A stretch of 64,000 nucleotides of DNA from a virus. Below are positions 4,500 through 50,302 of this stretch, one piece after another. The notes under the pieces are model-generated. The model was not told where the DNA came from. It saw only the letters and a list, made by a program, of their open reading frames with translations, and searched no databases. A program made the position numbers and the translations under genes. The number at the start of each line of letters is the position of its first letter. The first letter of the stretch is position 1. Where the stretch lies: IMG/VR virus record IMGVR_UViG_3300010397_000002, positions 13,301 through 77,300 of that record; one strand, written 5' to 3'.

Positions 4500-6641
4500 T
4501 TACCTGTTAACATTCCCATATTCATCAAATCCTGGCATAATATCATAGATGTCCATGGGTGGTAAAGTATATGTTTTAGGCTGAATTTTACCTCCAAGTT
4601 CAGTGAACCCTGCCGCTACCGAATAGTCATATTCAGTGGTTTTCTTAGGATTGAATACCAATAAATCTTCCACCAAATCAATGAAAGGAATGGTATGCCC
4701 CCAATACTCAATATACGTTGCAAGGGCACTTGTATACTCCTGAATGATCTGCCCGCTGGCCGGGGTACCGTCTGCGTACACATTTTTCCTTGTTCCTGAC
4801 TCAGCTATGTATTTCTGCAAAATAAAATCTCCGCACCCATGTTCAATGAAATAATTCATGATCCCTGGCTTTTGAGACTCAGCATGCAGTGAGCACCCGA
4901 AATACCACATCATCATCAGTGCCCGTTCAAAAAACACATTTGGATCATTCGGGCGAACGTCCATCATCGCGATGTATCGATTGGTCTTATACTGATACTT
5001 CTCTTTGGCGCGTTGCTCCAAAATATCCTGCGTCAATATCCCATCAATTGATGAATCGTATTTACGTTTTACGAAAAGGACTGGCTTTGACCGGCGAGTG
5101 CTGATATATTCTTCATCTCCTCCTTTACCTTCCACGACAACTCCGTGATCTACCGGATCGACTCCTGAAATAAATTTAGCATCATTGAGCGGAGCAAAGT
5201 TGGGTCTATCTCCTCCTAATTTTCTTTGTACTAGATTTGTTTCTTTTGCATCATTAATGAGTGAGTGTACCCATGCCCATCCGGTGTATTGATTTGGTCT
5301 GAACCTGACTTCTGTAAATCTCTTATTGTCTACCCAATAAAATTCTCCTTTAACAAGTATTGACTCTGCGATAGATTCAAGTTCTGATTTACGGTCTTGG
5401 AGGACAGTGGCGTTGAATTCGCAGCGGTCTGTGTTGATGTAAAAAATTTCTTTTAAGTATAATGGATACCTTCTTATAACACCAGACAATTCTTTTGGGC
5501 TATCCTTATAAGATTCTCTTTCAAGTAATATCCATTCTTTAGCTTCCTTCCTTAATGGATGACCCCATTGATCTAAAAAACTTTCGTGAGCGCAATCACC
5601 TGGAAGGAAACAAACATATAGTCCACTCTTCGTTCTTCCATCTGGTTGACGTTGATCGAAGTCACTTTCATAAAACATTTTTTTGTATGCTCTACCACCC
5701 TTACCAGTAGAATCCATAAATTCAACGGTGGTCCCTATGAAGCATTTTCCTCGTAACTCTTTACCTCTTCTTAAACAAGGCTTTACAACGGCCCATCTAT
5801 CGTTTACATTACAATTTAAAATTTTACCGGCCTCCTCCATTAAATAAGTGTGAAGGATGCTACCATCATACTCACTTACTCCACTTGATCTATAATCAAG
5901 TTTTGATTCTAAATCTATTGAGTCATCATAATCACCAATGACCATTGACTTACTCCTAGCTGCTGGCTGTTCAAATTTTATATCCGATGTTAAGGCTGAT
6001 GTTGTGTCGTACGTTGGTGTAAAATAATATGGAAGCTTCTTGAATGGAGACTTGATCATTTGAGTGTAAAACAATCCTGCTTTATGATCATTTTCTCCTT
6101 GGCAGCCTGTATAATGATTTCTATTTCGTGTCGTTCTGTATATTGCCCATCCTCCCATTAATGATGACTTACCATAACGACGAACAGTGTTGAATAATAA
6201 TCCATAAGAGTTTGGATCTTCTTCACAATACTTTAATAAATATGTAAGTTCTTTATCTGTCTCTCGATATGTTGGGAATCCGAATGTTGTTTGCCATGCT
6301 GTTAAGTACCAATAGTAAAACCCAGTGATGTAAGTTGGTGTGCCGTTATTCCAAAACCAAAATCCTTCTTCAGATCGATCCCACTCTTGATCTGCCCATC
6401 TATTTATTTCTGATTGAAGTGGGTGAATATAATTAGGATCAAGCTGAACTCTTTTCGCGTATTCCCTAATTGCTTTTTTAATTGTTTCGGTTGGGGATGG
6501 GCGGGTCCATTTTTGTTCATTGAAGAAATGTATTTTTTTATCAGATGGGACTTGTGGCAAATAAACACACGGAATGCCTTGTCCGGTTATCGCGGTGATT
6601 AAATATTTTAGTTGATATGGATTTTTAGTCTCCTGAAACAT
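4500..6641 (-). CDS. terL: Terminase large subunit
   Basis: RRYGKSS Walker A, LMEEAGK Walker B, GTT coupling motif, GVDPVD RNase H-like nuclease motif. Confidence 0.92.
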   Translation of the reverse strand: MFQETKNPYQLKYLITAITGQGIPCVYLPQVPSDKKIHFFNEQKWTRPSPTETIKKAIREYAKRVQLDPNYIHPLQSEINRWADQEWDRSEEGFWFWNNGTPTYITGFYYWYLTAWQTTFGFPTYRETDKELTYLLKYCEEDPNSYGLLFNTVRRYGKSSLMGGWAIYRTTRNRNHYTGCQGENDHKAGLFYTQMIKSPFKKLPYYFTPTYDTTSALTSDIKFEQPAARSKSMVIGDYDDSIDLESKLDYRSSGVSEYDGSILHTYLMEEAGKILNCNVNDRWAVVKPCLRRGKELRGKCFIGTTVEFMDSTGKGGRAYKKMFYESDFDQRQPDGRTKSGLYVCFLPGDCAHESFLDQWGHPLRKEAKEWILLERESYKDSPKELSGVIRRYPLYLKEIFYINTDRCEFNATVLQDRKSELESIAESILVKGEFYWVDNKRFTEVRFRPNQYTGWAWVHSLINDAKETNLVQRKLGGDRPNFAPLNDAKFISGVDPVDHGVVVEGKGGDEEYISTRRSKPVLFVKRKYDSSIDGILTQDILEQRAKEKYQYKTNRYIAMMDVRPNDPNVFFERALMMMWYFGCSLHAESQKPGIMNYFIEHGCGDFILQKYIAESGTRKNVYADGTPASGQIIQEYTSALATYIEYWGHTIPFIDLVEDLLVFNPKKTTEYDYSVAAGFTELGGKIQPKTYTLPPMDIYDIMPGFDEYGNVNR

Positions 6642-7171
6642 TACGAAACATCTCTCATTTTAATCCTCTGCTCAGGTCTCAACATTTGCACAACATGATT
6701 AACGGCCATGTCTTTTACATCCTCTTGCGCATATATTTCAGAGTAAAGCCTATTTATCCGGGTCAATAATTCGTCGCTTGTCTTCGAAAGTTCTCCCCTG
6801 GCTTTATACTTTTTCATCAACTCCTCCTCATCGGTGGTGGCCGCAGGACTCATCAAAATACTCTGAATGTCCCAAAAAAGCTGCTGATCGGAGCATAGCT
6901 TGTGATATGCATTGCTATTCTGATAAGTAGATAAAAACGCGAAAATGAGCTTATTTACAGCTTCGTCCTTTAAATCCATGATATTTATAACATCCGGATC
7001 GCTTAAATTAAGTTTAGCTTGTTGGGCTGCTTCCCGTTTTCTCTCGGATAAATTTTGGGTATTATTAAGCGGAGAGTCCTTTGAATATAAAAGCTCGATG
7101 TATTTGCACAACTTTAATTTATCTTTGCCTACGAACCGCTGGCACACGTCCATGTCGGAGAACTTAATCAT
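6641..7171 (-). CDS. Hypothetical protein upstream of terL (possible small terminase)
   Basis: Helical ORF coupled to terL. Probable start MIKFSDM at 7171, with TATCTTTG -7 box at 7186-7193. Function inferred from position only. Confidence 0.5.
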   Translation of the reverse strand: MIKFSDMDVCQRFVGKDKLKLCKYIELLYSKDSPLNNTQNLSERKREAAQQAKLNLSDPDVINIMDLKDEAVNKLIFAFLSTYQNSNAYHKLCSDQQLFWDIQSILMSPAATTDEEELMKKYKARGELSKTSDELLTRINRLYSEIYAQEDVKDMAVNHVVQMLRPEQRIKMRDVS

Positions 7172-7192
7172 ATTTAACCTTTTAACAAAGAT

Positions 7193-7666
7193 ATGAAAAC
7201 ATACAGCAACAAAGCCATCGACCCACCAAAGAAGAAAGTGCAATCAAATGTTACGCTCGGGTTTCAGAAGGGATCAGAGAAAAAAGAATATACTCCAACC
7301 AGGGTATTATCGGGCCATCCGGAATATGGAAAAGAAAGTTCTTCTAATAAAGACGCAAAGTTTATTGAAGATGCCAGGGCTAAAAAAGAGGATATTGCTT
7401 ATAAAGATGGCAAGCCTTATCGCGCTGGTACTACCACTGTTACCAAGACTCCAGATAAATTCACTACGAATGTGACGGTGGATAAGCCTAATTTCAAGCC
7501 TGTTTCAAAGCCTGCTATGGAAGAAAAGAAGAAACCAGAGGCAAACAATACTGGTAAAAAGATGGCTAAACTTAAGCCGATGGCCATGACTTATGGTACT
7601 GACAGCCCGACTAAGGGCGGAGGAACGATGTATAAGAAGAAGGTAAGATCGTTATTGGGCCGATAA
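7193..7666 (+). CDS. Lysine-rich low-complexity protein
   Basis: 157 aa, very basic; begins MKTYSNKA. Confidence 0.7.
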   Translation: MKTYSNKAIDPPKKKVQSNVTLGFQKGSEKKEYTPTRVLSGHPEYGKESSSNKDAKFIEDARAKKEDIAYKDGKPYRAGTTTVTKTPDKFTTNVTVDKPNFKPVSKPAMEEKKKPEANNTGKKMAKLKPMAMTYGTDSPTKGGGTMYKKKVRSLLGR

Positions 7667-7692
7667 TTTTAACAATCTAAAAAATAAGACAT

Positions 7693-8034
7693 ATGAAAAA
7701 GCTATTATTAATTGCACTCACATTCACGGTACTTGCATGCTCTACTGGTTCGTCAACTGACAATATTTCAAGTCCTTTTACGAAGGCTTCTTATGTGTTA
7801 CCGGTTGTTAACCGAAGCATACACCTAAGAGTTACTACTCTCAATGGTCAGAATTTAGTTAATGATAGTGAATTAAATGTCATAAACAGTGGGATAGTCT
7901 CTATTTCTAGAGATGGCTTAACTACTGATCCTAATATCTGGATACGAGATATGGGTTCTGATGTGATGGAAATAACGATTAAGATTGACGCGGTTAATCT
8001 AGAGAAGTTGATTCAATGTGCTAACACACAATAA
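7693..8034 (+). CDS. Putative lipoprotein
   Basis: MKKLLLIALTFTVLAC lipobox signal. Confidence 0.7.
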   Translation: MKKLLLIALTFTVLACSTGSSTDNISSPFTKASYVLPVVNRSIHLRVTTLNGQNLVNDSELNVINSGIVSISRDGLTTDPNIWIRDMGSDVMEITIKIDAVNLEKLIQCANTQ

Positions 8035-8045
8035 TATTTGTCTCT

Positions 8046-8429
8046 TCAATCAGATAGCCTCGCGCAGGCTATCTCTCCTTTTCTTACAAATCCTATTCTC
8101 CGGGCCTTCCTGTTTAAAATTAACTTTCTGTGCGGAATATGCCTTAACCATATCTCCAGATCAGAACCTTTCGCTAATACTTCGGCTTTAAAATGATGGC
8201 CTTTTGTAGGAGTTACATCACCATGCCTTAATCCTCCGTGGTAAACAGAAATAATTTTATCTATTCTGGCAGAGGCTTCTTTCTCCAGCACAGTATCAAT
8301 TTCAAGTTCTCTTAGTAAATGACTTCTACGGTACTCATTCAGCTTAACATAAAAATCCTGAGCACCAACTTGCGCTGATGTCAGGACTGCTATTGCCATA
8401 GCTAAAAAAGTCTTAATGATAACTACCAT
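8046..8429 (-). CDS. Secreted CAP/SCP-domain protein
   Basis: Signal peptide, LNEYRRSH..L, H...ILN..ARRIGF CAP motifs. Confidence 0.7.
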   Translation of the reverse strand: MVVIIKTFLAMAIAVLTSAQVGAQDFYVKLNEYRRSHLLRELEIDTVLEKEASARIDKIISVYHGGLRHGDVTPTKGHHFKAEVLAKGSDLEIWLRHIPHRKLILNRKARRIGFVRKGEIACARLSD

Positions 8430-8707
8430 GAATCGCTAGATCCTCCACCTCCAAAATCACCACCTCCACCGAAGTCTGAACTACCACTATCCGAAGAGGA
8501 TGATGAATAATCAATAGATGAACTACTATCGTTCATCATCATGTCAGCAATTAAAACTCCGGTCAATACATCAATAATGGAGTCATTACTTCCGCTTCGA
8601 CTACCAGAACATGAATGTCTGTTGGCTTCTGATTTACTATCAAAAGTCCGACCGCAAGAATTGCACTTGAATTTACTCATATATTTGTTTTTTAAAACAC
8701 TCTTCAC
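8423..8707 (-). CDS. Small protein with Zn-finger-like N-terminus and Ser/Gly-rich tail
   Basis: CNSCGRTF...HSC followed by SSSSDSGSSDFGGGGDFGGGGSSDSW. Confidence 0.6.
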   Translation of the reverse strand: MKSVLKNKYMSKFKCNSCGRTFDSKSEANRHSCSGSRSGSNDSIIDVLTGVLIADMMMNDSSSSIDYSSSSSDSGSSDFGGGGDFGGGGSSDSW

Positions 8708-8812
8708 ATTGGATCAGTCCTTTTTGTTTATTGTGATTTTCATCATGAATTGGATATGACTTTCCAATAAAGTTAAGTCCGCATGAATCACATAATTTTT
8801 TGATTATTTTTT

Positions 8813-9277
8813 TCATAACACAATCAACCAAACCCCAACAAATAAGAACACCAAGTAAACAATAGCTCTACCTCCCCATCCGAATGATCTCCACCACTTC
8901 TCTTTATCAGGCCATGCTCTGTCACTTAAATGCTTCACTACATGATTGAGAATCTCTGGCATAGTTAAGTACCTAAATCCATAACGGTGTGATTTTGGAA
9001 TGCCAGCGTATGTAGTAACGTTATTCTTTAAATGAATATAGTTTATCCAGTAAGGGAATAATGCTGCAAATAAGAATGTGGCTGCTGTGGTGAATCTAAT
9101 GAGATTAAGAATATAGTTTGTGTCATACATTAAAAAGGAGATGATACAAGCAACAATAAAGCAAGTTATACCTCTTATCCTCCAATCATAATTCGGATGC
9201 ACGTCTCCATATTTATCTCGGTATACTTCGAAAAGTGTTGGTAGGATGAGGATTACTATTGTCATGAATGTTTTCAT
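8813..9277 (-). CDS. Membrane protein
   Basis: Several hydrophobic segments. Confidence 0.65.
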   Translation of the reverse strand: MKTFMTIVILILPTLFEVYRDKYGDVHPNYDWRIRGITCFIVACIISFLMYDTNYILNLIRFTTAATFLFAALFPYWINYIHLKNNVTTYAGIPKSHRYGFRYLTMPEILNHVVKHLSDRAWPDKEKWWRSFGWGGRAIVYLVFLFVGVWLIVL

Positions 9278-9282
9278 AAGTA

Positions 9283-9468
9283 TTATTTGTTTTTGAGTAG
9301 TCCAATAACCTCAATAATAATTTCAAAAGCGAATGTGGCTAAAAATAAAATGGACGCTATCTTACCAATTATCCAAAGATGTTGATAATCACTTGCTCCT
9401 GTAACCACTACATTAATGACCATTACGATGGCTAGAAATATTTGAAAATAAAATGCTGTCCTTATCAT
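9283..9468 (-). CDS. Small two-TM membrane protein
   Basis: 61 aa, two hydrophobic helices. Confidence 0.6.
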   Translation of the reverse strand: MIRTAFYFQIFLAIVMVINVVVTGASDYQHLWIIGKIASILFLATFAFEIIIEVIGLLKNK

Positions 9469-9761
9469 GGTTTTATTTCTAATTTTATAACTCTAATCTC
9501 TGATACGTTATGCTTTTTCATGTAGTCTACTCCATAAAATAAAGCAGAACTAATACATGTATAAGTTTTAGAGATGCCGGTTCCATTTTTGTAGTATACA
9601 TAAAGTCTATGTGTTGGAACTTTACTTTTAACTCCCATACAGAAATTTTTAAAGAACATTTTGTCTCATCGACCAAGATCCCTCGCCACCAATCTAGCGA
9701 GGGACGACTCTGTTTTAAACCAATAAACTGCGGAACTCTCAAAACCGCAATCGCATATACA

Positions 9762-12951: not shown

Positions 12952-13820
12952 AGCTTTAATAAATCCTCACTCTTAATCGCATACACTCCAGCATGCTTAC
13001 AAGTCTCTGCGGCAGCTTTATTCGCCAGTTCAAGCGAATCATCAATCAGCATTCCGCAAGCATAACACAATGCAATGATAGCAGTTATAGTATCGCCTGC
13101 ACCGCATACATCAACCACACCAACTTCTTCTCCTGGTAAGTGATCTCTTCCTGAAGATGAATACAGATACAATCCTAACTCCCCAATTGTGACCACAAAA
13201 TAATTTATCTTAAGCGTGGTCCTGATGGAGTCTATATCTAATCCTTTAGCTTCGTGCTTATTGCATTTTACAATGTTTGCCCATTTATATTTATGAAAAT
13301 CTTTTTTAGCATCCACAATAACAGGGACATGATTGTCGTTACATAAGTTTATTATTATCTGCGCAATACTAAGGCTAATGGTGCCCTTATGATAATCGGA
13401 GAATATAACTGCATCCAGCGATGGTAACAATTTCTCGAAATCTTCTCTCCAATGGACATCATCATAAGTTATATCTTCTTGGTTGGCATCTTCTTCATCA
13501 ATACGGAGAAGATGATGGTTGGACGACATGATCCTTGTTTTAACAGGAGTTACACCTGCATGGACAAAGACTGTGTGTGCTTTTTTAGCAGATGAACAGC
13601 GTGTGAATAGATAAGCATCAACACCAAGATTCAATAAATTCAAAAGAACATTTCCGGCACCGCCTAGATAAGAAGTTTCTGATGTCTTCATTACCACAAC
13701 AACAGGAGCCTCTGGAGACACTCGTTCAACATCACCAAAGATGTATCGGTCTTCGATAAGATCACCGATGATGGCAATTTTAAGTTTGGATGCTTTTTCT
13801 AGGAGTTCTTGGATATTCAT
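12948..13820 (-). CDS. hldA: D-glycero-beta-D-manno-heptose-7-phosphate kinase (HldE/RfaE kinase domain)
   Basis: IGDLIEDRY..G.VERVSPEAPV, LGGAGNV, SDYHKG, DVCGAGDT (PfkB) motifs typical of RfaE1. Confidence 0.9.
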   Translation of the reverse strand: MNIQELLEKASKLKIAIIGDLIEDRYIFGDVERVSPEAPVVVVMKTSETSYLGGAGNVLLNLLNLGVDAYLFTRCSSAKKAHTVFVHAGVTPVKTRIMSSNHHLLRIDEEDANQEDITYDDVHWREDFEKLLPSLDAVIFSDYHKGTISLSIAQIIINLCNDNHVPVIVDAKKDFHKYKWANIVKCNKHEAKGLDIDSIRTTLKINYFVVTIGELGLYLYSSSGRDHLPGEEVGVVDVCGAGDTITAIIALCYACGMLIDDSLELANKAAAETCKHAGVYAIKSEDLLKL

Positions 13821-21479: not shown

Positions 21480-21919
21480 AAGTAAATATCAAAAATTATA
21501 CTTCCACTGTTGCTGCATCCAAATCGGTTGCTCGTATTGAAGAGGTACTTGTCTCTATTGGTGCTGATCATATCAATAAAAATTACAAAGATGGACAGTT
21601 GGTCTCCATCTCATTCATGGTAGTCGTTAACGGCAATACCATTCCATTTAAACTACCAGCAAAAGTTGATAATGTTTATCAGGCATTAAAAAAGTCTTAC
21701 AAAAGATTGTCAACACCTGCACTTAAAAATTTAACTGAGCAATCTGCGCGTACCGCATGGAAAATATGTTGTGATTGGGTAGAAATTCAAGCCACGTTAA
21801 TTCGTCTTGAGCAGGCTGAGTTTATTGAAGTGTTCTTACCTTATGTTTATAAAATTGATACTGATCAAACGTTTTTTGAGTCGTTGAAGCAGAAGAATTA
21901 TAAGGCGTTGTTGGAATAA
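21476..21919 (+). CDS. Conserved phage hypothetical protein
   Basis: NYTS.V...S...IE..L...GA; RTAWKI..DWV; EVFLPY. Confidence 0.7.
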   Translation: MKVNIKNYTSTVAASKSVARIEEVLVSIGADHINKNYKDGQLVSISFMVVVNGNTIPFKLPAKVDNVYQALKKSYKRLSTPALKNLTEQSARTAWKICCDWVEIQATLIRLEQAEFIEVFLPYVYKIDTDQTFFESLKQKNYKALLE

Positions 21920-25215: not shown

Positions 25216-25321
25216 AAAACTTTTTTACCTTCAATCCCTCTAGTCAAGTTTTATCCCGAGTGCAACGTATGATTTACCCGATTTTTTGGTCAAAATTCCC
25301 ATCCTTTAATTTTTAACATCT

Positions 25322-29164: not shown

Positions 29165-29201
29165 AGTGTCCTGATAGTGTCCTGACCAAGCTTAGGACAC
29201 T
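29165..29201. repeat. AGTGTCCT iteron cluster (left)
   Basis: AGTGTCCTGA at 29165 and 29176; inverted AGGACACT at 29194. Confidence 0.85.
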
Positions 29202-29657
29202 TTAATTGTTTATTTCTGGCTTGTTCTTGCGGTATTTTGCTTTAATCTGATTATACAGATCAAGCCTCTCCTGCTTTTCTTCATCAGTAAGTCTTCTTCG
29301 GGTTCCCTTACTTATGGTCTGATAAAGTTTGATCATAAGTTTAGCTAATTCTTTATCCCTCTCAAGTTCATCTATAACCAGTTCAAGAAGCATTATTGCG
29401 CGCCGGTCCTGAGTATCATGCCAATAATAAAGTTTACCATCTTTCTCTTGAACTGACCTTGCTCCACCAAACATTTCGTACATAAAATCAACTTCCTCTT
29501 CATCCTCCGTCCTAATACGAACGAAAAACTTATACCCAACATATTCCCCAACAAACTTCTGTGAAGAGCCTATAAAAGCATAAGTTTCGACAATATCAGC
29601 AGCTTTTGAAATAGTAAAATCATCTACATCATTGAAAATAATTTTGATTTTTTTCAT
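29202..29657 (-). CDS. Degenerate LAGLIDADG-fold protein
   Basis: AADIVETYAFI helix, beta region ...FGG, YYW...A..LLE, RRLTDEEKQERLDLYNQIK. Probable start MKKIKI at 29657. Confidence 0.6.
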   Translation of the reverse strand: MKKIKIIFNDVDDFTISKAADIVETYAFIGSSQKFVGEYVGYKFFVRIRTEDEEEVDFMYEMFGGARSVQEKDGKLYYWHDTQDRRAIMLLELVIDELERDKELAKLMIKLYQTISKGTRRRLTDEEKQERLDLYNQIKAKYRKNKPEINN

Positions 29658-29663
29658 AAAAAC

Positions 29664-29700
29664 AAAAAACCCATGCAGTCTAGTAAGTACCTGCACGGGC
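29664..29700 (-). terminator. Leader terminator/attenuator hairpin
   Basis: Minus strand: GCCCGUGCAG-12 nt loop-CUGCAUGGGU-UUUUU, immediately before the ATG. Confidence 0.7.
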
Positions 29701-29773
29701 TTTAAAGATGGATATGGAGACCCGATCTTGATACCCCGCTTACTAGTTCGAAATAGCAAAATCATTACCGCAT

Positions 29774-29804
29774 CAAAGGTAAAAAGATTATTAGATTTAC
29801 CAAA
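29774..29804 (-). promoter_or_regulatory. Bacteroidetes primary-sigma promoter
   Basis: TTTG-19 nt-TACCTTTG matches the -33/-7 consensus. Confidence 0.8.
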
Positions 29805-29824
29805 TTTAAACACTCATTTATGGT

Positions 29825-30010
29825 AGTATCCTGAGTGTCCTGATAGTGTCCTGAAGTGTCCTAGGACACTCAAAATACAAGGTCTCTCTCTAGTGTCCTG
29901 CTTGTCCTAGTAGGTATAGGAATACCCTAGGACAGCAGGACACTAGGAGTATGCGGGTAGTAGGACGCTTAAAAAAAATAATATATTTTACTATTTGGTC
30001 AGGACACTAG
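29825..30010. repeat. Iteron/palindrome array, putative replication origin
   Basis: About ten full or partial AGTGTCCT/AGGACACT copies; perfect palindrome AGTGTCCTAGGACACT (29855-29870); 20-bp-arm inverted repeat 29890-29946. Confidence 0.8.
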
Positions 30011-31178: not shown

Positions 31179-31265
31179 CAAAAACTTTCTAACTCATTAT
31201 CAGCAACTTACATCTTTTTTCTTTAACAGCTATTGACATAGTAATATATATCACTATGTTTACAT
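31179..31265 (+). promoter_or_regulatory. Early promoter module A (IHF-like box + operator + -7 variant)
   Basis: CAAAAACTTT...TATCAGCAACTTA, operator 31238-31257, TATGTTTA. Confidence 0.7.
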
Positions 31266-31293
31266 AACAATTCGAAACAAAACGACTAAAGTT

Positions 31294-31515
31294 ATGCGAA
31301 CCTTAGATAAAATAATTACAAAAGTGAGCACTAAATATGGCGCTCCAATGGGTCGGGTAAATGTTGGTTCATTTCCTGATGATGTAAAAGTATTTGATTC
31401 AGCGGTGCCAATGCGTGGAACTTATGACAAAGGCGGCGCTTATTGGGGTTTAGGTACTCAGTTAAGAGTATCGTACACTAAAGACCTTTCATACATCAAT
31501 TTTTACAGGAAATGA
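31294..31515 (+). CDS. Early hypothetical protein
   Basis: VSTKYGAPMGR...YDKGGAYWG; AAAACGACTAAA upstream. Confidence 0.7.
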   Translation: MRTLDKIITKVSTKYGAPMGRVNVGSFPDDVKVFDSAVPMRGTYDKGGAYWGLGTQLRVSYTKDLSYINFYRK

Positions 31516-31633
31516 AAAAAGCCACCCTTTTAATAATCGGCATATTGACTGTAATAGTTGCGGTTGCTTTATGCCCAAGGCCAATTGCGATGCGATCTTT
31601 AAATGTATTTAAAACGACTAAATAATAACGACT

Positions 31634-31969
31634 ATGAAAACATTAACAAAAGACATGGTAAACTTTTCAATCAATTGTTTATCAGAATACGAGCCAATTA
31701 CTAAGTCTCTTTCATTTGAGACAACCGGTGCAGATCACTCTGAATACATACAAAAAGTACAACTTGACAACGGCGAAAACCCTTGGTTATGGTGTGCGGT
31801 TGAAGTGATTGCAGAGTTCAAAGGTATTCGTGGCGCGGCTTATTTAGGTGGCTGTGCATATGAAGATGAGCAAGGGTTTAAAGTTGGCGGCTATTATGAG
31901 CAAATGATTGATGAGGCTTTCGAGGAATTGAAGTCTAAAGTAGACGAAATAGTTAACGCCTTAAATTAA
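31634..31969 (+). CDS. Early hypothetical protein
   Basis: W.W..VEV.A......YLGGC.Y; AACGACTA motif at the start. Confidence 0.7.
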   Translation: MKTLTKDMVNFSINCLSEYEPITKSLSFETTGADHSEYIQKVQLDNGENPWLWCAVEVIAEFKGIRGAAYLGGCAYEDEQGFKVGGYYEQMIDEAFEELKSKVDEIVNALN

Positions 31970-32242
31970 AAATTTATGATAACCTTTAAACAAATGCCAT
32001 TATGCCCGAAATGTGGGTGTGCTATGGTAGGAGGTGCGCCTCATGGGCCTTGGCCTGTGCAGTATGAATGCCATTCATGCGGTCATATACTGATACCTAA
32101 ATAATCAAGATCATGAAACCCACCGAACAAATCTTATTCTTAACCAAAGACGCTGACATAATTTACGTGCCCTTCATTGGAGCGATTAAAAGCGTACTTG
32201 TTTTTGAGTATGTGAGTGTTAACAATTAAACGACTAAATATT

Positions 32243-32476
32243 ATGGAGATAACAACGGTAATTTTTTATAAAGAAGATGATGGGAGCATATTAGCGGTAT
32301 TCCCATACGAGCACAAAAGGATTCATGAAGTTGAATGTTATTCTTTTATCGGTCAGCATTCCAGTGCGGGTACTGAGTATTGCAACAAACTAAAGAAGGC
32401 AACTAAAAAAGAGTATGCTTCACTTAAAACAGAACTTGAAAGTAAGCCATATAATTACAAATTGAATGTTATTTAA
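32243..32476 (+). CDS. Early hypothetical protein
   Basis: Start MEITTVIF after AAACGACTAAA; AVFP...CY..GQH. Confidence 0.7.
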   Translation: MEITTVIFYKEDDGSILAVFPYEHKRIHEVECYSFIGQHSSAGTEYCNKLKKATKKEYASLKTELESKPYNYKLNVI

Positions 32477-32630
32477 AACATCTTAAAAGATCATGGAACT
32501 AAAAAAAGAAATAACTAGGCTTGCGAAACTAAAAGGCTATCCGCACATAAAATTGTCAGCGTTACAATATCTCGACATTCTTACTCAGGCGCATAAAAAT
32601 ATTTATAAAACCTCTTAAACGACTACTAAA

Positions 32631-33206
32631 ATGAAAACGACTATTAAAAAATCAATCACAATCAAGCAAGCTTTGAAAACTGCAAATGACGGCAAGAATC
32701 AAAGTATCAAACAAAAGTTTGTAGGTCAACATGTTTATTGCAATGTGGGTTCTCTCTGTGAATATGTTGTTAATAAGGGCTTTGAAGATCCAAACGCGCC
32801 TTTTACGTTGGATGATATTGAGAACTATTATTCTTATCCTGAATACAACGGAATTTCCGCAAGCTTTGACGGTGGCAGTGAAGATCAAAGAAATGAAGAA
32901 ATTGAACGTCTACGCGATTTAATTACAGATAATGATCATAAAAAAGAAATGTGTGATACAATTGAATCTGAAATTGAAGAACTTAAAAATCTCGAATCCG
33001 AACCGCAAGAAATATTTGAATGGTGGGCGGTATCTGAGTACTTATATGATAAGCTAAAAGATATGGGTCATTGTGTTGTAGACGCTGGAAGCTGTTACGT
33101 TTGGGGTAGATGCACAACCGGTCAAGCTATTTTACTAGATCATTGTATTAGTCAGATATGTGCTGACATGGGAATATTAGAGGGACAAGCTAACAGTTGG
33201 GCATAA
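32631..33206 (+). CDS. Early conserved phage protein
   Basis: EIFEWWAVS...WGRCTTGQAI.LD. Confidence 0.75.
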   Translation: MKTTIKKSITIKQALKTANDGKNQSIKQKFVGQHVYCNVGSLCEYVVNKGFEDPNAPFTLDDIENYYSYPEYNGISASFDGGSEDQRNEEIERLRDLITDNDHKKEMCDTIESEIEELKNLESEPQEIFEWWAVSEYLYDKLKDMGHCVVDAGSCYVWGRCTTGQAILLDHCISQICADMGILEGQANSWA

Positions 33207-33622
33207 TGAAACATCTATTTGTCCCCTACGAAATTGCAAGGCAATTAAAGGAAAAAGGATTTAATGAACCGTGTTTTTTAGTCTACCATGATAAAAAACT
33301 GGTTGCTATAAAAGATCATGTTTCGTCTAACTTTTTAATTCCAATAACAACAAATAAAGAGTTAGGTGTAAAAACATTTTGTGCCCCACTATACCAACAA
33401 GTAATAAATTGGTTTAGGGATACACACAAAATATACATGAGTATTTTCCCCGACTATAATTCTAAAGATGATTATAAAACATGTTGGGGGTTTAATATTG
33501 TCCAACTTGAATGGGGCGAAGATAAAGAACACCATCTAGCCAGTTATGACCGAGAATATGAGACCTTATACAACGAAGCACTAACCAAAGCAATCGAAGC
33601 AGCACTAAAACTCATCGCTTAA
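33197..33622 (+). CDS. Conserved Bacteroidetes-phage protein
   Basis: FVPYE.A..LKEKGFNEPC; APLYQQV..WFR. Confidence 0.75.
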   Translation: MGIMKHLFVPYEIARQLKEKGFNEPCFLVYHDKKLVAIKDHVSSNFLIPITTNKELGVKTFCAPLYQQVINWFRDTHKIYMSIFPDYNSKDDYKTCWGFNIVQLEWGEDKEHHLASYDREYETLYNEALTKAIEAALKLIA

Positions 33623-33636
33623 TTAACCTAAGCACT

Positions 33637-33675
33637 CCAGACCGGTTTTACTTAGTCGTTTGCCGGTCTGGTTTT
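33637..33675 (+). terminator. Terminator-like hairpin with anti-AAACGACTAA loop
   Basis: CCAGACCGG-TTTTACTTAGTCGTTTG-CCGGTCTGG-TTTT. Confidence 0.8.
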
Positions 33676-33710
33676 ATCTCAAATGACTTTATGCAAACTA
33701 AATTTGGATC

Positions 33711-35126
33711 ATGATACTGCATTACATAAATAACAAATTAATTGGAATTGCTAATGAAAATTTATTCTCGGTTAATCTTTTTGATTATCAGTTATTACAG
33801 CAAGACATCATACAAGAAATAGATAACTCTCGGTGGGTTGATAATCATATCTTAATTATAGATAACAAAAAACGATATGAGTTTACGCATAGAGAAGAAA
33901 AAATTTATCTAGGCGATGAACTTATAAGTAATGATTTTAGAGATTTATTTATATCTCTGATTAATCCTGAAATGTGTAGACTGAAAAACAGATTTAAAAC
34001 ATTTACGGATTAACCATCTTCAAAACCTTTCGGTGTATAGGCCAACCGTTGATTTAACTGCAAACTAAATTTAAAACAATGAAACCAACAACTAAAATCC
34101 TCAAAGTATTCACCACCTATTGGACTAAGCAAAGGTATGCACTAGTTCGTATCAATGGAGTTGGTGTATTTATTAAGCTAAACTTTTTAACTGCAAACTA
34201 ATTATGAAAACAATAGACTTACATAAAAATTACATCCTCATTCATAAATTTCGTTATCCAGATGAGCCCATGAAGCAATGGGTTGTAGAAGATGAAACAT
34301 CAATCGGGCAGTATCACAATGATTGGAATGAGTTGATGGAAGTAGTTGATAAGATTGAATCATTAGGTTATGATTCTGGTATTTGTGGCGTAGTAATTAA
34401 AAACGAAAAACTGACAGAGATACTATTTGCCCCACAAGTCAAAAGTAATACCATAGAGGTTCATACCAGGACAAGAAAATCAAAAATAATGGCTACGTAT
34501 GAAGCTGTTGTTATGTGGATAGAATTACATGGAGAAGAAATCCTTAGAGCAAACTAATTATGAAAACTGAACAACAAGTTTTATTCGAAGCAAAAGCAAT
34601 TTTATTTGGCCTATTAGTTAATAAGTCTGATAGTGAATTAACACTTGTTGAAGCTGAGATTTTAGAGGCTATTTCCAGGGATCACCAAATCCAAGAGAAA
34701 CTTAATCTCCCCAAAGATCAAGCTGAAATTGATCGAAGACTGAAAGAGCGAAACACAATCACAAAGCACAATAGCGAATTTCCTTTACCGCCTTACGAAT
34801 CGTATGAAAAAGAATAGACTCCCGCGCAAACTAAAAAAGAAAATTAAAAATCGTCCAAACTTTTTAATTAAGAAGCTGGCGAAAGAAAACGGGCATCTCA
34901 TTTAATCGACTCAAGAAAAATTATAAAGAACGGAAAGATGACCAACACCGAAAAAATAGACACCTTCTTCCATAAGCTTACAGAGGATGAGAAACATGAG
35001 TTAGTATGTCGAAGTGCAAACAGCCAATGGAATTGGCAAACTAATACTGTGATTTTGGGTTGGAGCTCTATGAAGCATTTAGAAAAATACCAAGAAATGT
35101 TAATCACTAAATATTACAACAAATGA
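33711..35126 (+). CDS. Early small ORFs (33711-34013, 34079-34201, 34204-34557, 34560-34817, 34938-35126)
   Basis: Tandem ORFs; four are preceded by GCAAACTAA. Confidence 0.6.
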
Positions 35127-35833
35127 AAGATGCAATTGGCGACCGAATGAAAAACTACTATGAAGATAGAACAAGATTCTCTCTCATTCGCAGATCATAC
35201 ACGATCATACGCATAGATGGCAAAGCATTTCACACCTACACAAAAGGACTGCAAAGACCTTTCGACGATCAGTTAATAAATGATATGGATCAAACCGCAT
35301 GCTTTCTTTGTAAAAACATTCAAGGTGCTAAGTTTGCATTTGTTCAGTCAGATGAGATTTCAATATTATTAACTGACTTTGAGGAATTAACTACTGATGC
35401 TTGGTTTGATGGTAACATTCAAAAAATGGTTAGTGTATCGGCCAGCTTGGCAACTGCAAGGTTTAATGAATTGCGACCTAGCAAACTAGCTTTTTTTGAT
35501 TCACGCGTATTTCAAATTCCAAGTAAAATTGAGGTAGAAAATTATTTCATTTGGCGCCAACAAGATACTGTTAGAAATAGCATTCAATCTACTGCTCAGT
35601 CAGTGTATTCACACAAAGAACTCGAAAATAAAACCACGGATCAGCAACAAGAGATGATCTTTCAGAAGGGTATAAACTGGAATGATTACGAACCAAAATA
35701 TAAAAGAGGGCGAATTATTCTTAAAGAAAATTATTTGAAAGAATATGCTATTAGAAGTCGTTGGATAAGTTCGGAGGCCCCCACATTCACCAAAGACAGG
35801 GAATTTTTATCAACTAAAATTCCTATCTTATGA
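35123..35833 (+). CDS. tRNA(His) guanylyltransferase Thg1-like 3'-5' polymerase
   Basis: GDRMK.YE, RIDGKAFH, QSDEISI, FDSR, WRQQD..RNS. Confidence 0.93.
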   Translation: MKDAIGDRMKNYYEDRTRFSLIRRSYTIIRIDGKAFHTYTKGLQRPFDDQLINDMDQTACFLCKNIQGAKFAFVQSDEISILLTDFEELTTDAWFDGNIQKMVSVSASLATARFNELRPSKLAFFDSRVFQIPSKIEVENYFIWRQQDTVRNSIQSTAQSVYSHKELENKTTDQQQEMIFQKGINWNDYEPKYKRGRIILKENYLKEYAIRSRWISSEAPTFTKDREFLSTKIPIL

Positions 35834-36417
35834 TCCGAGGCTACGCCCGCGTTTCCACCCAACACCAAGACCTTGGCCGACAGATCCAAGACCTCAATCA
35901 ATACGGTTGTGAGATCATCTACCAAGAGAAGATTTCAGGCAAACTAAATAAGAGACCTGAGCTTGATAGGATGCTTGAAGAGATGCAAGCGGGTGACGTG
36001 ATTGTCATCCATAAGCTGGACCGACTAGGGCGCTCCCTTCAGCATTTGATTGAGCTTGTGAACACGTTCAAGGACCGAGGCGTTGACTTTATATCGCTCA
36101 AAGATAACTTCAACACCACCACCCCACAGGGCAAACTAATTTTCAATATCATGGGCTCCATCGCAGAGTTTGAGAGAGAGCTAATATTAGAGCGAGTGAA
36201 CAGTGGCATAAAGCACACTAAAATCCATGGCACTAAAACAGGACGGGCACATGGTAGGCCAGACAAAAGCAAGGACCCGAAAACTATTGAGGATGTTGTT
36301 AATTTATATCAATCTGATACAGCGATAACGGTTAAAGAAATTTCGGAAAAGATGAAGATTAGCAGACCAACTGTTTATAAAATTTTGAGGCAAAACACCG
36401 AATTAGTCATTCGTTAA
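35830..36417 (+). CDS. Small serine recombinase (resolvase/invertase)
   Basis: GYARVST..Q, KLDRLGRS, AEFERELI.ER, C-terminal HTH. Confidence 0.95.
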   Translation: MIRGYARVSTQHQDLGRQIQDLNQYGCEIIYQEKISGKLNKRPELDRMLEEMQAGDVIVIHKLDRLGRSLQHLIELVNTFKDRGVDFISLKDNFNTTTPQGKLIFNIMGSIAEFERELILERVNSGIKHTKIHGTKTGRAHGRPDKSKDPKTIEDVVNLYQSDTAITVKEISEKMKISRPTVYKILRQNTELVIR

Positions 36418-36695: not shown

Positions 36696-36896
36696 ATCAA
36701 CTAAAATCTAATAATTATGAAAGTAGGCGACATCACCCGCACAGTAATCTCTACCTCTAAAAAACTAAGAGGAGAATCAGAGGTAGTATACAAAACATAC
36801 CTCGGCCAGCACAAAGGCAAGGCTCGGTATAGTTCGAAGACCAAGCATGAGAAGGTTAAAGCGAACTTATAGTATTCTCATTAAATCGATAAATGA

Positions 36897-50253: not shown

Positions 50254-50302
50254 GGCTTCAATCTTCGGAGTGCAACGTCGGAAGACGGATTTGATTACAA
50301 AA

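Follow-up and report, generated by a model that had tools for sequence, protein, structure and literature searches.

We analysed a 64,000-nucleotide stretch of phage DNA (IMG/VR record IMGVR_UViG_3300010397_000002, positions 13,301 to 77,300; hereafter the window), in which a short A-rich sequence, the box, is repeated at translation starts of a nine-gene operon, and its reverse complement, the anti-box, lies in the loop of the hairpin that follows the last gene. The phage genome, complete at 77.3 kb and with terminal repeats in direct orientation, comes from a soil record, and the window covers 64 kb of it. The large terminase shares about 26% identity with its counterparts in Flavobacterium and Cellulophaga podophages, a crAss muzzle C-terminal domain is present in one tail protein, and relatives of the operon gene gpH are found on contigs of about 76 kb binned with Bacteroidota genomes. 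Taking these points into account, a Bacteroidota host is likely. The original prediction, made from the letters of the window, had assumed a Bacteroidetes setting, which now receives indirect support from the terminase, the Bacteroidota-binned relatives and the type of the operon promoter. A blastn search of the phage against phage records gave no match.

Layout of the operon, its boxes and its hairpin

The operon consists of nine tightly packed genes from 31294 to 33622, and no function could be assigned to any of the nine products. Its promoter, read from the sequence, is of the Bacteroidota type, for which the consensus is TTG-N19-TAnnTTTG. The features in question are as follows.

31233–31262, plus strand: promoter of the Bacteroidota type (TTG, 19 nucleotides (nt), TATGTTTA)
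31236–31259: putative palindromic operator across the promoter
31280–31289, plus strand: box 1, AAACGACTAA, within the 5′ leader and 4 nt upstream of ATG 31294 (gene of 73 amino acids (aa))
31612–31621, plus strand: box 2, AAACGACTAA, encoding the final residues of a 37-aa open reading frame (ORF; 31512–31625)
31627–31634, plus strand: box 2′, AACGACTA, its last base being the A of ATG 31634 (111-aa gene)
32228–32237, plus strand: box 3, AAACGACTAA, 5 nt upstream of ATG 32243 (77-aa gene) and sharing two bases with the stop codon (32227–32229) of a 38-aa ORF
32617–32625, plus strand: box 4, AAACGACTA, 5 nt upstream of ATG 32631 (gpH) and sharing two bases with the stop codon (32616–32618) of a 41-aa ORF
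32631–33206, plus strand: gpH, 191 aa, phrog_26364
32635–32643, plus strand: box 4′, AAACGACTA, covering gpH codons 2–4
33206–33622, plus strand: 138-aa gene, the last before the hairpin, its ATG overlapping the gpH stop (TAATG)
33637–33671, plus strand: terminator-type hairpin with a stem of 10 base pairs (bp) and a 15-nt loop, starting 14 nt past the last stop
33652–33661, plus strand: loop segment forming the anti-box, TTAGTCGTTT (exact reverse complement of AAACGACTAA)
33672–33679, plus strand: U-rich tail, TTTTATCT

The palindrome across the promoter, ATAGTRATATATATYACTAT, is about 20 bp long, stands at gene boundaries at 9760, 25197, 31236, 36476 and 48498, and is probably an operator for a phage repressor. 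The operon leaders are A-rich and lack GGAGG, and so offer no Shine-Dalgarno target. Boxes are carried by the four larger genes (73, 111, 77 and 191 aa), the 111-aa gene having two. Those serving ATGs 31294, 32243 and 32631 end 4–5 nt ahead of the start codon, and the start codon of gpH lies between boxes 4 and 4′. The small ORFs between the boxed genes start by stop/start overlap or in another context (AGATCATG). The six copies at translation starts, and the four ATGs that the original prediction had assigned to them, were confirmed at their coordinates.

The distribution of the box was then examined over the genome. On the plus strand, AACGACTA is found at 31281, 31613, 31627, 32229, 32618 and 32636, and these copies are restricted to 31281–32643, with no others on that strand across the 77.3-kb genome. 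On the minus strand it occurs at 33653 and at 21621, the latter within a coding region; the 13.3 kb beyond the window hold no additional copy. The complete 10-mer AAACGACTAA is present on the plus strand at 31280, 31612 and 32228 and on the minus strand at 33652–33661, and the only AACGACTA copy antisense to the operon is the one in the hairpin loop. Eight copies of AACGACTA compare with about one expected in the window, and none of 100 shuffles reached eight.

The arms of the hairpin stem (33637–33646 and 33662–33671) form seven G-C pairs and close with a final U.G pair. Counted alternatively, the structure has a 9-bp stem and a 17-nt loop, as the original prediction had described it. Its folding energy is −19.1 kcal/mol (z = −3.4), and UUUUAUCU stands directly 3′ of it. 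With a G+C-rich stem, an adjoining U tract and a position downstream of a stop codon, the hairpin has the properties of an intrinsic terminator. The loop of 15–17 nt exceeds the 3–8 nt usual for such terminators, and a terminator scan set to loops of 3–8 nt omits it. A search of Rfam gave no family matching the region. The predicted complementarity of the loop to the box over 10 nt without mismatch holds for 33652–33661: the anti-box is a perfect 10-nt complement to three leaders and a 9-nt complement to both gpH boxes. In the case of box 2, pairing is possible over 16 of 19 nt and extends into the 5′ arm of the stem.

How often such a match would arise by chance was estimated within this genome. 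Shuffled loops or random genomic 17-mers had a complement of at least 10 nt to some leader of the operon in about 1% of trials. Hairpin loops genome-wide were not enriched for leader complements, nor did a general loop/leader test on all hairpins of this genome and of all relatives reveal enrichment, which indicates that the effect is specific to the 3′ element of gpH. That the box is repeated is significant on its own account, but this does not multiply the significance of the loop match. The shuffle test suggested in the original prediction thus upheld the repetition of the box and left the loop match, taken alone, with modest support. As the match in a single window is only suggestive of a non-random origin, the weight of the evidence rests on relatives.

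Box and anti-box pairs in other phages

Among the operon genes, only gpH was found by protein search to be widespread in other phages, and the genes around it are not conserved across 123 loci. Searches bearing on the function of gpH found neither a Pfam family nor a solved relative, and the Atlas returned no useful match. In the relatives, hairpins and start codons were called by simple scripts. A scan of IMG/VR with a 14-mer of the box returned single chance matches only, and these loci later served as controls; none of the phages behind the 123 gpH loci has AACGACTA as a repeated leader box. What recurs is the relation between two places. In many phages the start region of gpH has a complement of 8–12 nt, with a sequence specific to the phage, either in a large-loop hairpin downstream or at the very beginning of the sequence past the stop.

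Five phages, including that of the window with its pair AAACGACTAA and TTAGTCGTTT, display the same layout with different sequences. L220 is a 76-kb phage contig whose gpH is 53% identical to that of the window. It carries AAAAACACCACA at −17 to −6 of both gpH and the preceding gene, with weaker variants at later starts, and its hairpin begins 19 nt past the stop of a downstream gene and holds TGTGGTGTTTTT in a 23-nt loop. This match extends over 12 nt, a length not reached in any of 1,892 mismatched leader/hairpin pairs. Outside the loop, the 7-nt core has no further copy of this orientation in the fetched locus, nor has the 8-mer AACACCAC in the whole 76-kb contig. The hairpin of L220 has no U tail. 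In L133, the leader sequence AAAGCGACT is matched by AGTCGCTTT in a 15-nt loop; the leader contains one G that the window lacks, and the loop contains one additional C to match it. In L203, which comes from a complete genome of 76.8 kb, two leaders contain AAACCGAA, and TTCGGTTT lies in a terminator loop whose size is 13–17 nt according to the closing pairs included; a GCAAACTAA gene start comes after this terminator, as it does in the window. In L127, ACAATCAC flanks the gpH ATG on both sides, and the 15-nt loop that directly follows the gene contains GTGATTGT. A start codon flanked by two boxes, seen at gpH of the window, is present in L127, and also in L142.

Three further loci present the antisense copy differently. 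In L137 (12 nt), L139 (11 nt) and L142 (11 nt), the anti-box complements the start codon together with the first codons, and stands unpaired directly 5′ of a strong terminator hairpin, an arrangement that resembles the usual build of a 3′-derived small RNA (sRNA). Throughout, the stem sequences differ in every phage and the hairpin is retained. The antisense copy is always where prediction leaves the RNA unpaired, in a loop or in a seed within the untranslated region at the 3′ end (3′UTR), and the sense copies are always within 17 nt upstream of a start codon or in the first codons. In some box variants (L142, and AAACGCCAC in L220) pairing is kept solely via G.U. The predicted duplexes of box and anti-box range from −13 to −20 kcal/mol. 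Alignment and consensus folding of the five hairpins gave no result, the sequences being too unlike.

The significance of these matches was evaluated with two tests. In the first, 44 non-redundant loci, with the window left aside, were examined for complements between downstream hairpin loops and the gpH start region, and the null was obtained by pairing hairpins with the leaders of other loci in 20,000 permutations. Complements of at least 8 nt were present in 7 of the 44 loci against 1.2 expected (p = 5e-5), and of at least 9 nt in 3 (p = 0.003). An earlier run with 43 loci had given 5 such loci, and its controls, with the loop read in other ways, 0 (complement only), 1 (reversed) and 2 (same sense). 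In the second test, the gpH start region was compared with the first 100 nt past the stop in 52 loci. Matches of at least 9 nt were found in 7 loci (p = 2.5e-4) and of at least 8 nt in 13 (p = 4e-4). A z-score based on duplex energy was confounded by the G+C content of the leaders. The original prediction had proposed to test whether motif and loop co-vary in related phages. At gpH they do, five phages having their own box with a matching loop and others an anti-box just past the gpH stop. Observed features are the sequences and the non-randomness of their distribution, the hairpin, and the way in which box and anti-box co-vary from phage to phage.

A proposed anti-start element and its rivals

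Taken together, the features described above give the impression of a genuine element of RNA control and not of a chance match. Given the co-variation at gpH across phages, pairing of RNA that covers start sites is the best explanation, and that part of the original prediction in which the hairpin RNA recognises the start sites is supported in this form. We infer that the pairing occurs in RNA, that it represses, and that it acts in cis or in trans. We consider it rather probable that an RNA element at the 3′ end, which may be called an anti-start element, pairs with the ribosome landing zone and limits how much gpH is translated, and in this phage the three other genes with a box as well.

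The course of events would be the following. The operon would be transcribed from the promoter at 31233–31262, giving an mRNA in which four start codons have the A-rich box AAACGACUA(A) at −14 to −5 and gpH holds a further copy just inside its start, and this mRNA would be translatable while being synthesised. The 3′ end of the transcript would be the hairpin displaying UUAGUCGUUU in its oversized loop. Loop and box would then pair, either in cis by fold-back within one mRNA, or in trans if the hairpin persists as a stable 3′ fragment that acts on all boxes or on other mRNAs. Pairing would cover the landing region of the 30S subunit and shut the start site, so that translation of the boxed genes would be lowered (or their decay altered) after the 3′ end is made, and the output of gpH limited. 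The conserved core of the system would be gpH, with the same box shared by three further genes in the phage of the window. Such a closing of starts once the 3′ end exists would come close to the "timer" of the original prediction. Activation, stabilisation or control of read-through into the block from 33711 may instead be the outcome of the pairing. Since Bacteroidota do without Shine-Dalgarno pairing and initiate mainly via an open A-rich start, pairing at that place should lower translation. One report on Flavobacterium describes initiation as set by mRNA structure near the start and a few upstream nucleotides, and not by Shine-Dalgarno pairing (PMC6847099). To the extent that start accessibility governs initiation as described there, covering −14 to −5 should matter.

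Several points weigh against this proposal. The relatives compared share only gpH with the window, and the gpH loci compared are those outside the group of closest relatives (P0002–P0010, with gpH 66–79% identical). About 37 of the 44 gpH loci had no loop match of at least 8 nt. As most loci are negative, the feature is recurrent rather than universal. The 8-nt matches in L140, L150 and L223 are AT-only or involve weak stems, and may be chance. A 10-bp helix within a loop of 15–17 nt would be sterically tight, and inverted repeats flanking a gene would also be expected from an element acting at the DNA level. The neighbouring repeated motif GCAAACTAA has no antisense partner, and not every repeated leader box here works via an anti-box.

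An element acting at the DNA level is the subject of the first rival explanation, in which the box is a double-stranded DNA site bound by a sequence-specific protein, be it a repressor, a recombinase or a protein of the nucleoid type. The hairpin copy would be a seventh, inverted site, and co-variation would result from changing specificity. Co-variation alone cannot separate RNA pairing from a shared DNA-binding specificity. A gene for a serine recombinase/invertase (35830–36417) lies 2.2 kb downstream, and the operon appears to be under a DNA operator already, the palindrome at its promoter. An invertible DNA segment of the Hin/Gin/Mpi type would be expected to lie between inverted crossover sites, near an invertase gene, and to occur in both orientations in the population. 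Inverted 10-bp copies and the recombinase gene are present; the 10-bp box lacks the palindromic half-site structure that hix sites have. The comparison covered assembled contigs from three DNA runs, which had no variants or joints and cannot reveal rare inversions. A DNA site does not need the layout that was found, with the inverted copy in a hairpin loop in five phages whose stems are all different. Nor does it require that the anti-box be single-stranded just 5′ of a terminator, as in three others, that all sense copies fall at −17 to −1 of start codons, or that the anti-boxes of L137, L139 and L142 complement the gene's own first codons. The hairpin kept despite changing stems, the unpaired antisense copy, the sense copies at starts and the pairing kept by G.U favour RNA over DNA, and we regard the DNA site as unlikely.

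A second rival, still less likely in our view, accepts the RNA pairing as real and assigns it to control of the hairpin itself, that is, to termination and read-through into the block from 33711 or to stability of the 3′ end. Between the hairpin and ATG 33711 the sequence shows nothing like a promoter, and in the window, L203 and L133 a GCAAACTAA gene start follows within about 20–40 nt after the hairpin. The pairing of box 2 can reach the 5′ arm of the stem. On the other hand, the anti-boxes of L137, L139 and L142 lie outside the hairpin and their pairing spares the stem, the hairpin of L220 has no U tail, and the complement is always at the start-codon region, which a termination switch does not need.

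Little credence is due to a third possibility, that the repeats are an evolutionary footprint free of regulation, either junction sequences copied as small accessory genes shuffle or terminal inverted repeats of a mobile gpH cassette. It would agree with the mosaic nature of the operon, of which only gpH is common to relatives, with the position of boxes at gene junctions, two of them overlapping the upstream stop codon by two bases, and with the likeness (81%) of segments 31620–31646 and 32629–32655. Terminal repeats of a mobile element should, however, be identical across phages, and each phage has its own pair. The right-hand copy is consistently in a loop or a single-stranded 3′ stretch, and the left copy can fall inside the coding start.

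Very improbable, finally, is a box that does no more than enhance the start region or offer a favoured context for initiation, comparable to start-associated sequences (SAS), with the loop match in the window as a coincidence. In favour of this reading, the core ACTAA(A) is about 8-fold enriched in the 30 nt upstream of gene starts genome-wide, relatives have start-adjacent words of their own, such as CACCAATG (L124) and ACACCATG (L150), for which no antisense copy was found, and the probability of the loop match in the single window is about 1%. Against it, the coincidence recurs in other phages with other sequences at the p values obtained in the two tests (5e-5 and 2.5e-4).

Returning to pairing that covers start sites, related arrangements are found among known systems. 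In the hok mRNA of plasmid R1 (hok/sok; fbi/tac), the 3′ end pairs with the 5′ translation region and renders the message inert until slow 3′ trimming removes the inhibitor and allows translation, with the antisense RNA Sok in the circuit. The likeness is that the 3′ end of a full-length mRNA would bear on its 5′ translation region as a built-in timing device; the difference is that no Sok-like partner or 3′ processing is known here. The sib hairpin of phage lambda, 3′ of its gene, controls the upstream gene via RNase III cleavage and 3′ decay. It is likewise a 3′ phage hairpin acting on an upstream gene, but has no complementarity to the start region. C-rich loops of Staphylococcus aureus RNAIII, that of the terminator hairpin included, and enterobacterial sRNAs derived from 3′UTRs cover start regions. 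They too display the antisense sequence in a loop or just 5′ of the terminator and address several start regions. In contrast, they are bacterial, mostly have Shine-Dalgarno targets and often involve Hfq, and here the proposed regulator is the terminator of the targeted operon itself.

The statement in the original prediction that no system like this had been described was overstated in view of the icaR mRNA (PMC3868564), hbs (PMC5737220) and the repeats of Cluster K phages (PMC3203893). In icaR of S. aureus, a 3′UTR motif, the anti-Shine-Dalgarno UCCCCUG, pairs with the ribosome-binding region of the same mRNA, blocks the initiation complex and creates an RNase III substrate (PMC3868564). There as here, the 3′UTR holds a complement to the translation start region of the same transcript. 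The present case, known from sequence alone, differs in lacking a Shine-Dalgarno sequence and would target an A-rich box at −14 to −5; its anti-box is in a terminator loop, and four genes of a phage operon have the box in common. For hbs, an interaction between the 5′ and 3′ UTRs has been reported (PMC5737220). The SAS of Cluster K mycobacteriophages is a short asymmetric repeat a few nucleotides upstream of the starts of a subset of non-structural genes, in one orientation, with a single opposite-orientation copy in four genomes; it is a 13-mer with a Shine-Dalgarno core (consensus GGGATAGGAGCCC), spread over half the genome and conserved in the cluster, and its function was left open, an RNA or protein partner being possible (PMC3203893). 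The box resembles it as an asymmetric repeat near a subset of starts in one orientation. It is nevertheless unlike GGGATAGGAGCCC in sequence, is confined to one operon, varies between related phages and has its inverted copy in a hairpin loop. What would be new here is a target other than a Shine-Dalgarno sequence, an anti-box in the terminator loop of its own operon, one loop for several genes, and a pair whose sequence changes with the layout kept.

Translation control in Bacteroidota, which lack Shine-Dalgarno pairing, is poorly understood, and post-transcriptional regulation by their phages is barely known. The proposal would supply a rule readable in sequences, a 3′ element complementary to a start region with both changing jointly across phages, and with it a directly testable handle on how expression in these hosts depends on access to the start region. 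Phages would join the few systems in which the 5′ and 3′ parts of an mRNA communicate. The proposal would also provide small re-targetable parts (box and hairpin) for gene control in Bacteroidota, and mark gpH, a widespread phage gene, as one whose dosage is apparently tightly limited. More tentatively, and as a possibility that we hold to be doubtful at this stage, phages of Bacteroidota, hosts without Shine-Dalgarno initiation, might use a programmable code of box and anti-box, in which a 3′ anti-start element, in the terminator loop or just before the terminator, gates translation of gpH. In the window it would be extended to an operon-wide address of four genes, and a second hairpin/leader pair of this genome (about 50262–50285 with 25257–25268) may hint at a wider network of hairpin-loop riboregulators timing expression.

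Other repeats and elements

A second repeat, GCAAACTA(A), occurs in the block after the hairpin in nine copies, all on the plus strand (33693–36131). Four of these are 3–11 nt upstream of ATGs 33711, 34079, 34204 and 34560, and the remaining copies are inside the genes for a Thg1-like protein and the serine recombinase. No antisense partner of the repeat was found. The 8-mer GCAAACTA is also clustered, on the plus strand only, in the complete phage of L203 (5 copies in 2 kb, one before gpH) and has 3 copies in L133; in the relatives there were 15 copies on the plus strand and 0 on the minus strand, with 8 and 6 for controls. The core ACTAA(A) is common to both repeats (examples at 35103–35108, 35810–35815 and 36697–36702), ACTAAAA is present in the gpH leaders of the window, L133, L203, L220 and L127, and the core may be a family-wide start-region signal.

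Other candidate roles for the repeats were considered and rejected or set aside. The box resembles TAATACGACT, which suggested a T7/T3-like promoter for a single-subunit RNA polymerase; the motif is confined to 1.4 kb and no polymerase gene was found. A PF00940 search of the complete genome gave no match, though its controls were silent as well, and the giant 1669-aa protein has no DxDxD motif. A minus-strand Bacteroidota −7 box within GCAAACTA was discarded, no consistent −33 element being present. Pairing of ACGACU with 16S rRNA around 1493–1498 was set aside, as a 6-mer carries no statistical weight and the region is presumably base-paired.

Several elements elsewhere in the window were noted. 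At 29165–30001, AGTGTCCT is repeated in six direct and four inverted copies, with a terminator-like palindrome at 29176–29201, and this field looks like iterons or operator sites. A 3′-region hairpin on the minus strand (about 50262–50285) has a loop region, ACGTTGCACTC, that is complementary in 11 of 11 positions to GAGTGCAACGT (25257–25268), a site upstream of a helicase gene, 54–65 nt from ATG 25322. The Thg1-like gene (35123–35833) encodes a homologue of tRNA-His guanylyltransferase, and the serine recombinase gene, of the invertase/resolvase type, overlaps it by 4 nt.

Among the relatives, the distant L216 has hairpins with the loop [A/G]ATAGTCGTAA in 5′ leaders, at 4577–4599, 4928–4950 and near 5587. 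They sit after the promoter-like CTCTTGACTATG and before A-rich starts, so that an AGTCG-containing loop is placed differently there. In L133, the 3′ end of a tRNA-like gene (GGTTCGACTCCCGGCC, in 1–48) immediately precedes a GCAAACTAA box and the gpH leader. L131 has, at 6043–9720, six composites of CAATAGCCC, a variable G+C-rich hairpin and GGGCTTTGGTAGTATA between small genes, which recall the promoter/stem-loop repeats of T4-type hyperplastic regions.

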